From the IMG/VR virus record IMGVR_UViG_3300035681_000004: DNA of 64,000 bases; one strand, 5' to 3'. The position numbers and the translations under genes are program-made. This document shows positions 22,862 through 44,115 of the stretch, one piece after another. How positions within the stretch are numbered: position 1 is the first letter of the stretch; every line of letters begins with the position of its first letter. The notes beneath the pieces were generated by a model that saw only the letters and a list, made by a program, of their open reading frames with translations, had not been told where the DNA came from and did not search any database. Source of the stretch: an uncultured virus (IMG/VR IMGVR_UViG_3300035681_000004) (lineage: Duplodnaviria; Heunggongvirae; Uroviricota; Caudoviricetes).

Positions 22862-23143
22862 TGCGAGTAGGGAGACTTGAACTCCCACGGGGTTGCCCCC
22901 AACAGATTTTCGTACCACTATAGTTTTCACTACCCTTTCGGTTTGTGGTCTGGACTATACCTTCACCATACCTTTCGGTTTAGGTGTTCCCCGTCTAGTC
23001 TCTACACCTTCATCTTATGATGCTTGGCTCGGTATTGCCATTTTACAGGTTTCACCGAATTTGAGGAATTACACTCATAAGGTTTCCCAAATGAGGCTCA
23101 ATTTTCATAAGTCTGGTGTGTCTACCGATTCCACCATACTCGC
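22862..23143 (-). tRNA. trnL: tRNA-Leu(UAA), split: exon 1 23143-23109, exon 2 22910-22862
   Basis: Acceptor GCGAGTA/TACTCGC-A, D arm TGGTGGAATCGGTAGACAC, anticodon stem CAGA/TCTG, loop CTT|AAAA, long variable arm GGGGCAACCCC, T arm GGGAGTTCAAGTCTCCC. Confidence 0.93.
22911..23108 (-). ncRNA. Group I intron (trnL/IC3 type), 198 nt, no ORF
   Basis: Inserted after U34; IGS GAGCCT; P AATTCGGTGAA, Q AATACCGAGC, R GTAGAGACTAGA, S AAGGTATAGTCC; terminal G. Confidence 0.92.
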
Positions 23144-23268: not shown

Positions 23269-23341
23269 TGCTCGTTACTGGGATCGAACCAGTCTATCAG
23301 GTCTTATGAGGACCGCGCTTTCGCCAGAGAGCTAAACGAGC
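23269..23341 (-). tRNA. tRNA with CAT anticodon (elongator Met or lysidine-type Ile2)
   Basis: Acceptor GCTCGTT/AACGAGC-A, loop CTCATAA, T loop GTTCGATC; G1-C72 pair so not an initiator. Confidence 0.88.
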
Positions 23342-23370
23342 ATTCGCTATTCGCAAATAAAGAATAGCAA

Positions 23371-23462
23371 TAGGGACACCTGGATTCGAACCAGGACCTC
23401 GCGGTAATCTGCCGCTAATACAAGGTATAAGCTTGCTGTTCTAACCGTTGAACTATGCCCCC
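23371..23462 (-). tRNA. tRNA-Ile(UAU) with unusually long variable region, 92 nt
   Basis: GGGGGCA/TGTCCCT-A acceptor, GCAAG-CTTATAC-CTTGT anticodon arm, GCGG/CCGC extra arm, CCTGGTTCGAATCCAGG. Confidence 0.85.
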
Positions 23463-43297: not shown

Positions 43298-43395
43298 CAC
43301 TTTGCTCCAACTAGTTGTGCTAATTGTGCTTGGTGACGACGCTCTTCTTTTTGTTTTTGTTCTTTGATAAGTTGTAGGAAGTTTAGCTTTTGCAT
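43297..43395 (-). CDS. 32-aa peptide (MQKLNFLQLIKEQKQKEERRHQAQLAQLVGAK)
   Basis: TGATG coupling at both ends; GGAGG upstream. Confidence 0.65.
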   Translation of the reverse strand: MQKLNFLQLIKEQKQKEERRHQAQLAQLVGAK

Positions 43396-43532
43396 CACTT
43401 ATGTCCCTCCTTTACAAACTTAACACCACGATAGGTTTCGTTGTATTGTTGGGCTTGTTGTTGCATTTGCTGTTGATACTGAATACGCTTTTCAGTATCG
43501 TATTCAACGCCCCTGTAGACAATTTTAGCCAT
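43395..43532 (-). CDS. DUF4278-like 'downstream peptide', 45 aa, Gln-rich
   Basis: IVYRGVEY and TYRGVKF motifs. Confidence 0.8.
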   Translation of the reverse strand: MAKIVYRGVEYDTEKRIQYQQQMQQQAQQYNETYRGVKFVKEGHK

Positions 43533-43568
43533 TTGTTTTCCCCTAAAGAAATGAGAGTTTTTAATTCC

Positions 43569-43737
43569 CGTTCCTTCAGTCGGCTTTTGCGTCTATTTTA
43601 CACTCTTTTGGAGAAATCTGTTTTATTTCCCAAATCAAGTCATTTTTGGCTTGTTTTGGAATATCAACTTTATGAATTCTCCCAACCATTAACTGTGCTT
43701 GTAGGCAAGTTAAAATGAGTGTTTCCATAGATGAACG
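43569..43737 (-). ncRNA. Glutamine-riboswitch-like element 2 (glnA/Downstream-peptide type) with an ORF in P2
   Basis: CGTTCA-TCTAT ... ATAGA-CGCAAAAGCCGACTGAAGGAACG. Confidence 0.65.
43576..43728 (-). CDS. 50-aa protein nested in element 2 (METLILTCLQAQL...ECKIDAKAD)
   Basis: ATG within P2 5' strand; stop inside aptamer 3' half. Confidence 0.65.
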   Translation of the reverse strand: METLILTCLQAQLMVGRIHKVDIPKQAKNDLIWEIKQISPKECKIDAKAD

Positions 43738-43740
43738 TTC

Positions 43741-43992
43741 CGTTCCGAGTCGGCTTACTTGCGTCCTATTTAATTTTAGCACTTAAGTTTTATAACGTCC
43801 TTTCGGAGTTCTGATAGCAATCGGTTTTCTTTTCTTTGGTCTACTACATCGTCGTTTTTAACGATGTCCATTAGTTCCCACGCTGCGTCGCAACTTATTG
43901 TCACCTGATTTGATTTGGCAAGTTGTGGCGTAGAAATAGAAAGAAGTGGAACCCATGCTAAAAGCAAAAGTGCTTTAGTCATAGGATGAACG
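43741..43992 (-). ncRNA. Glutamine-riboswitch-like element 1 with an ORF in P2
   Basis: CGTTCA-TCCTAT ... ATAGGA-CGCAAGTAAGCCGACTCGGAACG. Confidence 0.65.
43776..43982 (-). CDS. 68-aa protein with signal-peptide-like N-terminus nested in element 1
   Basis: ORF track; hydrophobic N-terminus; two Cys. Confidence 0.65.
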   Translation of the reverse strand: MTKALLLLAWVPLLSISTPQLAKSNQVTISCDAAWELMDIVKNDDVVDQRKENRLLSELRKDVIKLKC

Positions 43993-44039
43993 TTAGAGGA
44001 TTATTATACCTCTATTCACTGTATTTAGGAAGTTTTGTG

Positions 44040-44055
44040 TGTATTTCCTGATACA
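44040..44055. promoter_or_regulatory. NtcA-type binding site TGTA-N8-TACA
   Basis: tGTAtttcctgaTACa, upstream of TATAAT (44003-44008, minus strand). Confidence 0.6.
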
Positions 44056-44115
44056 ATTTTAGAAAACTTTAAGAAGTCAAAATTTTGCCGGGAAATTTTT
44101 CCCCGATCTGGGAAA

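Follow-up and report, generated by a model that had tools for sequence, protein, structure and literature searches.

The DNA analyzed here (the window) was a 64,000-nucleotide (nt) stretch of an uncultured virus (IMG/VR record IMGVR_UViG_3300035681_000004), and its source is a T4-like cyanophage. The isolates closest to the window were the freshwater Synechococcus phages S-SRM01 and DSL-LC02, and lake-water metagenome runs contained DNA that was nearly identical to it. The subject of this analysis was a leader on the minus strand (positions 43992 to 43568) in which half-motifs resembling those of glutamine riboswitches flanked two small open reading frames (ORFs). An earlier reading of the sequence, referred to here as the original prediction, had placed two glutamine-riboswitch-like aptamers in a chain, each wrapped around an ORF of 68 or 50 amino acids (aa). 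The half-motifs, ATG codons, P2 strands, and ORFs that it described were correct to the base on the minus strand. The features of the leader are listed below; pairing elements are named according to the fold that we propose, in which a, b, c, and d are the four P1 strands and X1 and X2 are the strands of a helix shared by the two units.

43992-43568, minus strand: composite leader with two 5' halves and two 3' halves, enclosing a 68-codon and a 50-codon ORF
43992-43987 and 43737-43732, minus strand: the two copies of CGTTCA
43992-43988, minus strand: a, proposed outer P1 5' strand CGUUC, followed by A at 43987; its partner in the nested model is d
43986-43981, minus strand: P2(1) 5' strand UCCUAU, containing the AU of the ORF1 start codon
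43982, minus strand: ATG of ORF1, 4 nt past the first P2 base
43982-43776, minus strand: nested ORF1, 68 aa, family 1
43769-43764, minus strand: P2(1) 3' strand AUAGGA
43763-43741, minus strand: 3' half of unit 1, CGCAAGTAAGCCGACTCGGAACG
43763-43756, minus strand: J2/3 junction of the proposed outer core, CGCAAGUA; C43761, at its third position, is the putative linchpin partner of G43568
43755-43748, minus strand: X1, AGCCGACU, proposed 5' strand of the inter-unit helix that stands in for P3
43746-43733, minus strand: proposed inner P1 hairpin, consisting of G, b GAACG (43745-43741), loop GAA (43740-43738), and c CGUUC (43737-43733)
43740, minus strand: G in the loop of the inner hairpin, putative linchpin partner of C43589
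43731-43727, minus strand: P2(2) 5' strand UCUAU, containing the AU of the ORF2 start codon
43728, minus strand: ATG of ORF2, 3 nt past the first P2 base
43728-43576, minus strand: nested ORF2, 50 aa, family 2
43596-43592, minus strand: P2(2) 3' strand AUAGA
43591-43569, minus strand: 3' half of unit 2, CGCAAAAGCCGACTGAAGGAACG
43591-43586, minus strand: J2/3 junction of the proposed inner core, CGCAAA
43585-43578, minus strand: X2, AGCCGACU, proposed 3' strand of the shared helix
43578-43576, minus strand: TGA of ORF2, inside the aptamer 3' half
43577-43568, minus strand: GAAG E-loop strand, d GAACG (43573-43569, proposed outer P1 3' strand), and linchpin G43568

The P2 loops in the window were 211 nt and 130 nt, and both were coding. 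After the ATAGGA of P2(1), the minus strand read CGCAAGTA-AGCCGACT-C-GGAACG to position 43741, and after the ATAGA of P2(2), it read CGCAAA-AGCCGACT-GAAG-GAACG-G to position 43568.

Family identity of the half-motifs

The pattern CGTTCATCN{1,4}ATG had two matches in the 64-kb window, both of which were at this leader, and shuffled sequences were expected to yield 0.08 matches. The pattern CGCAARN{8,20}GGAACGG also had two matches in the window, both at this leader, with 0.02 expected.

Relatives were collected in two scans of viral contigs. The first scan used the pattern GGAACG-N0-8-CGTTCATC and returned at least 117 stretches, 73 of which had an aptamer signature. The listed matches, the window, and three isolates made up a parsed set of at least 150 units in 78 loci; 78 units were compact, and 72 units (70 of them non-redundant) were split by loops of 124 to 212 nt. 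The second scan targeted units of the CGG type, and the two scans combined gave at least 139 non-redundant double units. All counts of units and loci given below are among the matches listed. ORFs were present in unit 2 of 90 double units, and the 69 non-redundant two-unit loci consisted of 37 compact/ORF, 13 compact/compact, 12 ORF/ORF, and 7 ORF/compact loci. As for the isolates, S-SRM01 and DSL-LC02 had a compact unit 1 and an ORF-bearing unit 2, P-SSM4 had ORFs in both units, and P-RSM3, P-SSM3, and P-SSM7 matched the junction stretch, which was as far as they were read. When the junction pattern was applied to genome contigs, the aptamer signature was found in 0 of the 120 loci listed, a result that was silent on whether cyanobacteria have the layout.

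The compact relatives linked the split units to glutamine-I riboswitches (glnA RNA, RF01739). The DSL-LC02 compact unit scored 35.6 bits with RF01739, which was above the gathering score of 35 bits, and the compact units in a sample of 20 viral loci gave 16 RF01739 matches of at least 35 bits. Overall, compact relatives scored 35 to 44 bits. Two of them (L004, 38.1 bits; L046, 38.8 bits) had a 3' half that was identical in every letter to that of window unit 2, and a third (L017, 36.3 bits) had a 3' half that was identical in every letter to that of window unit 1. The scores of compact relatives with the glutamine-II family (Downstream-peptide, RF01704) were 23.9 to 32.8 bits, all under the threshold of 33 bits. 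These matches supported the identification of the split elements as putative glutamine riboswitch aptamers that are interrupted by ORFs in the P2 loop, as the original prediction had proposed. In the Rfam alignments, the glutamine-I consensus was CGGAAGUA with GAAG before GGAACG. The outer core had the junction CGCAAGUA and GAAG, whereas the inner core had CGCAAA and a C-G link.

P2 helices across the ORFs

In the window, P2(1) was 6 bp and P2(2) was 5 bp. Among the 70 split units, the helix that starts after CGTTCA and ends just before CG(C/G)AA had at least 4 bp in 67 units and at least 5 bp in 64 units. The mean length was 5.94 bp, compared to 3.93 bp with shuffled partners (maximum of 4.36 bp in 1,000 shuffles) and 0 to 2.2 bp when the partner was slid. 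There were 32 distinct P2 helix sequences in these 70 units, and positions 3 to 5 showed full Watson-Crick swaps; position 4, for example, was T-A in 20 units, A-T in 14, C-G in 29, and G-C in 1. In the 12 ORF/ORF double units, 96.3% of the cells were paired versus 28 to 52% with slid partners, and the covariation score was 0.085 versus 0.043 and was reached by 0 of 500 shuffles. The results supported the conclusion that P2 closes and covaries across the nested ORFs. The original prediction had looked to covariation of both P1 and P2; the P2 part held (at least 4 bp in 67 of 70 units, 32 helix types), and P1 was invariant.

One compact unit contained a start codon as well. In unit 1 of DSL-LC02 (L003 1543-1588, minus strand), an ATG in the P2 loop opened a 4-codon mini-ORF that ended in the junction (ATGGGACGGAAGTAA). 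This mini-ORF may be a chance occurrence.

Nested ORFs as microprotein genes

In all 70 split units, an ORF that started in the P2 5' strand spanned the whole loop, with its stop at -15 to +31 nt relative to the 3' anchor. The other two frames were open in 0 of 20, 0 of 20, 1 of 50, and 0 of 50 split units. ORF alignments showed in-frame indels and protein-like substitution, and variation by codon position followed the order 3 > 1 > 2. The median ratios of nonsynonymous to synonymous substitution rates (dN/dS) were 0.345 (55 pairs) and 0.569 (439 pairs), values that were rough because dS (medians of 1.29 and 1.38) was near saturation. Mean column identity within the ORF families was 36 to 46%, and two cysteines were invariant in each family. 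The claim that the nested ORFs are conserved and coding was thus borne out by dN/dS below 1, the codon-position pattern, and the invariant cysteines. From their sequences, we conclude that the nested ORFs are, in all likelihood, real conserved microprotein genes.

The two families were related to each other. An hhalign comparison of family 1 with family 2 gave a probability of 96.1% and an E value of 2.8e-9 over 40 columns, with cysteine aligned to cysteine, which identifies ORF1 and ORF2 as predicted paralogues. AlphaFold2 (AF2) models were helical hairpins, with a mean predicted confidence (pLDDT) of 88.8 for ORF2 and 72.7 for ORF1. The ORF2 hairpin carried the two invariant cysteines. In the case of ORF1, a hydrophobic N terminus, which was of low confidence in the model, was followed by a helical hairpin bounded by the two invariant cysteines. 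A Foldseek comparison of the ORF2 model with the PDB returned no structure at an E value up to 0.001. ORF2 had a weak match to phrog_504, a cyanophage small protein (E value of 0.0046, 17.6 bits). A tblastn search of isolate phages found ORF2 in DSL-LC02, S-SRM01, and DSL-LC03 only, and ORF1 was unmatched. The DSL-LC03 homologue (OR003938.1, 163522-163674; 58.8% identity by tblastn) had no annotated feature in the record; thus, some small genes at such loci are unannotated.

In 67 of 68 counted units, the AUG was found within the 5' strand of P2, 3 to 5 nt from its beginning. ORF1 stopped no more than 12 nt from the P2(1) 3' strand, and ORF2 stopped inside X2/GAAG; the ORF2 stop was within the aptamer core in most units, and the window TGA at 43578-43576 agreed with the original prediction on this point. 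In family 2, the C-terminal codons (DAKAD or DAND and then the stop; DAKAD in the window) coincided with the P2(2) 3' strand, J2/3, and X2; therefore, the terminal letters of family 2 serve both the protein and the RNA. A Shine-Dalgarno (SD)-like motif preceded ORF2 in 23 of 49 units and was contributed by the linker.

The S-SRM01 locus (L002) differed at the end of its nested ORF. In its unit 2, X2 had G rather than T as its final base, which was compensatory for the shared helix; this change removed the TGA, and the ORF read through the P1 3' strand to give a 55-aa product, with a stop 31 nt beyond the anchor.

A helix shared by the two units and the proposed nested fold

No intra-unit hairpin that could serve as a unit's own P3 survived the variants seen in the phage units, and the inter-unit X1/X2 helix took its place. 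X1 consisted of the 8 nt that followed CGCAAGTA in unit 1, and X2 consisted of the 8 nt that preceded GAAG in unit 2. The short form of this helix, AGTCG/CGACT, paired perfectly in 29 loci. There were 17 distinct X1/X2 combinations in one comparison and 14 in the other, with compensatory changes. Specifically, ..ACT/AGC.. changed to ..ACA/TGC.. and ..ACG/CGC.., AGCC../..GACT changed to CGCC../..GACG, and AGTCG/CGACT changed to AGTCA/TGACT; AGTCAC/TGACT, GGACGACG/CGCCGCCC, and AGACAACT/AGTTGACT were further compensatory pairs. A mini-hairpin within each unit was considered as an alternative pairing and was rejected, as the same X1/X2 compensatory variants broke it.

The P1 strands were present twice in the window, were 100% paired in 12 of 12 ORF/ORF units, and were invariant. 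The topology therefore rests on the shared helix and on the linchpin, a long-range pair that connects base 3 of the junction with the nucleotide following P1 (PMC6698751). The linchpin discriminates a tandem topology (a with b, c with d) from a nested topology (a with d, b with c). In the 139 listed double units, the unit 1 junction base was Watson-Crick complementary to the base after d (the last GAACG) in all 139 (G-C in 80, C-G in 59) and to the base after its own b in 61. The unit 2 junction base was complementary to the base after b in 130 units and to the base after d in 61. In the window, the corresponding linchpins were C43761-G43568 and C43589-G43740. The best Infernal parse of two compact/compact loci (L047, 43.6 bits; L025, 41.0 bits) was one aptamer whose P3 contained the second unit. 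When the architectures were forced on the window, the cost relative to the free minimum free energy (MFE) structure was +1.9 kcal/mol for the nested fold without X and +5.8 kcal/mol with X, and +4.3 kcal/mol for the tandem fold.

The linchpins, the X1/X2 covariation, and the Infernal parses thus indicated that the fold is nested, with a predicted outer type-I core that spans about 425 nt and a permuted core inside it, rather than two independent aptamers. The predicted outer P1 is formed by 43992-43988 with 43573-43569, strands that are about 420 nt apart, and the predicted inner P1 is a local hairpin (43745-43733). Independent tandem aptamers would each be complete and closed on themselves; here, the helix was shared and the linchpins crossed between units.

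Proposed mechanism

On balance, we think it probable that the leader is one composite two-core glutamine sensor that encloses two genes and in which glutamine and nested translation compete. Under this model, 43992-43568 on the minus strand would be the 5' leader of a small early operon. The outer core would be of the glnA type (type I), with P1 formed by the first CGUUC and the last GAACG, P2(1) closed around ORF1, the junction CGCAAGUA, X1/X2 in place of P3, and GAAG and the C-G linchpin completing the core. The inner core would lie within the X helix and be circularly permuted, with the P1 hairpin GAACG-GAA-CGUUC, P2(2) closed around ORF2, and the junction CGCAAA.

A ribosome that starts or stops on a nested ORF would have to melt P2, the shared helix, or P1. 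As such, a ribosome on either ORF would open up part of each core, and both AUGs would be concealed in the folded sensor. Aptamer folding and nested-ORF translation would then be mutually exclusive, which we infer because the AUGs are in P2 strands beside P1 and the ORF stops are at or inside the aptamer. Glutamine binding would stabilize the folded state, with lower production of the nested microproteins, and would turn on translation of the downstream YRG (IF17-like) gene, in the manner of the gifB/IF17 leader of the host. The parts of this model that concern ligand binding, switch direction, and competition with ribosomes are proposals. In the Synechocystis gifB leader, a type-1 aptamer turns on IF17 synthesis with glutamine, and a type-2 aptamer precedes DUF4278 genes in picocyanobacteria (both in the consulted part of PMC6212724). 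In cyanobacteria, both aptamer types switch on IF17 or IF17-like (DUF4278) genes, and the bases immediately 3' of P1 have been proposed to cover the ribosome-binding site as long as no glutamine is bound (PMC6212724; PMC6698751). An in vitro version of the glutamine-II aptamer in which the RNA was split into two strands was still able to assemble with glutamine (PMC6698751).

A more ambitious version, which we put forward tentatively and hold to be somewhat doubtful, is that the leader is a natural two-input riboswitch that responds to a metabolite and to ribosome traffic, with reciprocal control from one fold and with a type-I core and a permuted core sharing a helix. If true, the nested microproteins would be on at low glutamine, and the IF17-like glutamine synthetase inhibitor would be on at high glutamine; such a two-core sensor may bind two glutamines cooperatively. 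The arrangement also raises the question of whether ribosome traffic and a metabolite can act on one RNA fold, and it suggests phage control of host nitrogen assimilation via the IF17-like gene and two two-cysteine microproteins.

Weighing the evidence and alternative explanations

A number of results weighed against the composite sensor. At the gathering threshold, Rfam searches of the unaltered window left RF01739 and RF01704 unmatched, a search of 43380-44080 at E values up to 10 matched no glutamine family, and the cut-off 3' half (43560-43604) gave an insignificant score with RF01739 (10.6 bits, E value of 3.1). We read the blanks in the window as probably a limit of the models and as uninformative because the hairpin loops were 130 and 211 nt. 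The window X1/X2 pair, AGCCGACT with AGCCGACT, formed 6 of 8 pairs and had two C.A mismatches. P2(2) in the window consisted of five weak pairs, and 3 of the 70 split units had only three contiguous P2 pairs. The free MFE structure held all five pairs of P2(2) and no other proposed helix. Being invariant, both P1 helices offered no covariation, and because both window linchpins were C-G, the topology of the window itself was inferred from its relatives; moreover, the state with G in junction 1 and C after d may derive from few evolutionary events. The inner core had neither the GUA nor the GAAG E-loop strand and, on this sequence evidence, may not bind glutamine. As for the ORFs, dS was near saturation (see above), ORF1 had no PHROG match at an E value up to 0.01 and no Pfam match, and none of 19 unit-1 cases had an SD-like motif before ORF1, which was 10 nt from the aptamer start. 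Finally, the RNA contigs described below cannot tell whether the leader is transcribed as one molecule, from which strand, or whether it is translated.

The leader could instead consist of two independent tandem aptamers, with a/b and c/d P1 helices around their own ORFs and additive effects, much like the simple chain of the original prediction. Both P1 pairings are equally possible, given that all four strands are invariant, and the constraint cost of +4.3 kcal/mol is close to that of the nested fold. Tandem glnA RNAs are known (PMC2864571), and one locus (L109) was a canonical independent tandem in which the two aptamers (63.2 and 58.0 bits) had their own P3 hairpins. The chain did not hold up in the listed double units, however: linchpins were Watson-Crick in 122 of 278 cases for a/b and c/d versus 269 of 278 for the nested arrangement. 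Furthermore, the phage units had no P3 of their own, the shared, covarying X1/X2 helix would cross both P1 helices, and Infernal favored the nested parse in L047 and L025. Independent tandem aptamers are therefore quite improbable. We give somewhat more weight to the idea that the ORFs are passengers, small genes lodged in tolerant P2 loops, much like ORFs in intron loops, of a switch that would fold at any time when no ribosome is on the mRNA, regulates the downstream gene alone, and has no designed coupling, and we still consider it unlikely. All four combinations of compact and ORF-bearing units occurred among the 69 two-unit loci, which indicated that the ORFs are dispensable for the fold and keeps this explanation alive. 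ORF-less alleles in the same RNA libraries (joints that skip 43593-43730) and the location of the leader in a hyperplastic early region with promoters like those of promoter-early stem-loop (PeSL) cassettes also fit passengers. On the other hand, 67 of 68 units, from two ORF families whose divergence is ancient, had the AUG within the 5' strand of P2, ORF2 ended in the aptamer core in most units, and the layout was retained through deep divergence (mean column identity of 36 to 46%). With the AUG in P2 and the end of ORF2 in the core, a ribosome and the fold cannot coexist, whatever the origin of the ORFs.

Two other explanations were given little credence. The split forms could be decayed or re-purposed aptamers that bind another ligand or none, with halves that serve RNA stability or processing. 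The Rfam blank in the window, a J2/3 that is CGC rather than CGG, and the shortened inner core would fit such decay, but the CGC/G linchpin is normal in glutamine-II RNAs and in many glnA RNAs (PMC6698751; the portion of the PMC2864571 supplement alignment consulted). In addition, the conserved core letters were all kept, compact relatives with the same letters passed the family threshold, and the helices covaried, which argues for selection on the fold and makes decay very unlikely. It is barely credible that the element acts as DNA, with the GGAACG..CGTTCC inverted repeat and the repeated halves as recombination or protein-binding sites. GAACGTTC was a perfect palindrome in the window, and PeSL cassettes mediate shuffling in T4-type phages (PMC2839356). 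Nevertheless, the spacer and flanks varied while RNA pairings 130 to 420 nt apart covaried, G-U pairs were present, and the family consensus was on one strand only.

Relationship to known RNA elements

Judged by its sequence, the composite leader is best filed as an architectural variant of the glutamine-I riboswitch, with the compact relatives as family members. In common with glnA RNAs and the Synechocystis gifB/IF17 leader (PMC6212724), it had P1 strands CGUUC/GAACG, a P2 directly after CGUUCA, the junction CG(G/C)AAGUA and the GAAG strand in its outer core, a long-range linchpin, and an IF17-like/DUF4278-like gene downstream. It differed from glutamine-I RNAs in that its P2 loops of 211 and 130 nt held genes, it had no P3 of its own and shared a helix with a second, permuted core, its outer P1 spanned about 420 nt, and the family model gave no match to it. 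The glutamine-II family (PMC6698751) was similar in its CGC...GGAACGG signature, its association with YRG peptides, and, in parallel with window unit 1 and the inner core, its short stretch leading into GGAACG with no E-loop; its aptamer, as noted above, assembles from two pieces. Unlike glutamine-II RNAs, neither window unit had a complementary strand directly after GGAACGG, and X2 was 163 nt downstream. Tandem riboswitches (glnA, PMC2864571; glycine, PMC7161355) also have two ligand-binding cores per leader, whereas the window cores appeared to be nested rather than side by side, with a shared helix and enclosed genes.

In the literature that we searched, no description of ORFs within a glutamine aptamer or of an interlocked double core was found. 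The glnA and Downstream-peptide alignments in the part of the PMC2864571 supplement that we consulted contained 0 of 10 split-type P2-AUG motifs and 0 of 5 junction motifs, although gaps could hide some. In the covered rows of these alignments, there was no P2(2)/junction/X2 motif; the alignments have long P2 and P3 insertion columns, whose rows were outside the covered part.

Riboswitch aptamers are generally regarded as compact and non-coding, and here a validated ligand class appears to enclose genes and to interlock two cores. Because standard covariance-model scans miss the split form, the census of cyanophage riboswitches is an undercount. Group I and group II introns have ORFs in peripheral loops, and their closing helix must form across the gene, as it would in the window; the difference is that the window element is a putative metabolite sensor in an mRNA leader, with a start codon in the closing helix and nothing spliced. 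In leader-peptide attenuation and translation-coupled switches, the position of the ribosome on a short ORF decides the RNA fold, as proposed for the window. Unlike leader peptides, the nested ORFs appear to encode conserved folded proteins and not sensor peptides, and the competing fold is an aptamer.

Promoter and transcripts

A probable promoter was found just upstream of the leader at 44013-43995 on the minus strand, with a -10 sequence TATAAT at 44008-44003 and a degenerate -35 sequence; a promoter scan of the window called no promoter at 44013-43995. The TATAAT was at the center of an inverted repeat (AGAGG/CCTCT) that spanned 44013-43995. Most of the 74 non-redundant relatives listed had a strong sigma70-like promoter with TTGACT, about 17 nt, and TAnnnT, ending 7 to 10 nt 5' of CGTTCA. 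The arms of the palindrome covaried among relatives L004 to L120 (GGTCTATAATAGACC, GTGTTAGTATTAACAC, and GGTATGCTAACATACC, compared to AGAGG..CCTCT in the window). PeSL cassettes of T4-type coliphages consist of a sigma70-like early promoter with a stem-loop over the -10 box (PMC2839356), and the window had both a probable sigma70-like promoter and a stem-loop overlapping the -10 at 44013-43995. The word cyanophage was absent from the main text of PMC2839356. Some relatives had GTA-N8-TAC, which would fit an NtcA-like site, but this reading was set aside in favor of PeSL because the arms of the palindrome covaried and were not one fixed sequence.

Contigs from four RNA libraries covered 43286 to about 44000, and one 419-nt contig corresponded to 43579-43996. 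Upstream of the leader, this contig ended at 43996, another ended at 43998 with a loose end that we take to be adapter sequence, and a third continued to 44018. None of the RNA-library contigs extended beyond about 44034. These ends suggested at most weakly that the 5' end of the transcript is near 43996-43998, a few nt ahead of the aptamer, and the contigs were weak evidence of leader transcription. In two libraries from lake or other aquatic samples (X19 and X21), contigs skipped ORF2 (window 43593-43730), with 7 to 8 other letters in its place in X21. Thus, compact unit 2 alleles coexist with ORF-bearing alleles in the same RNA libraries.

Downstream genes

The following features were located downstream of the leader.

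43567-43533, minus strand: putative expression platform, with CUCUC at 43557-43553 and the Shine-Dalgarno sequence AGGGG at 43544-43540
43532-43395, minus strand: YRG gene, 45 aa, IF17-like (DUF4278-like), with two YRG motifs
43398-43190, minus strand: a 33-aa ORF, a hydrophobic 28-aa ORF, and, at the end of the unit, a terminator-like hairpin (43208-43190)

The DUF4278-like gene that the original prediction placed downstream was recognized by its two YRG motifs and by a match to phrog_5049 (E value of 1.9e-12). Its score with DUF4278 itself (PF14105; 20.4 bits, E value of 6.6e-4) was below the cut-off of 25.3 bits. The 33-aa ORF (43398-43297) matched phrog_545 and overlapped the end of the YRG gene. 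In 21 of the 69 two-unit loci, an MNT-type small gene followed the sensor instead of the YRG gene; this gene resembled the 33-aa ORF of the window. Five loci (L027, L045, L071, L107, and L120) had an insert of about 40 nt directly after the last GAACG and before the Shine-Dalgarno sequence. The insert contained ACGGATC, a short stem capped by a GAAA or GCAA loop, and TAAAGGTG, and we know of no name for it.

Other RNA elements

Two further RNA elements were noted. In Prochlorococcus phage P-SSM4, a manA RNA (RF01745, 184 bits; L001 1537-1722, minus strand) was directly 5' of the double glutamine leader, such that two riboswitch-like elements stood head to tail. The window had no match to manA RNA. 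At 22929-23118 and 23269-23462, both on the minus strand, it contained a group I intron (RF00028, 62.1 bits) that adjoined two tRNA genes, and one of the tRNA genes beside the intron had a 21-nt insert in its variable region.

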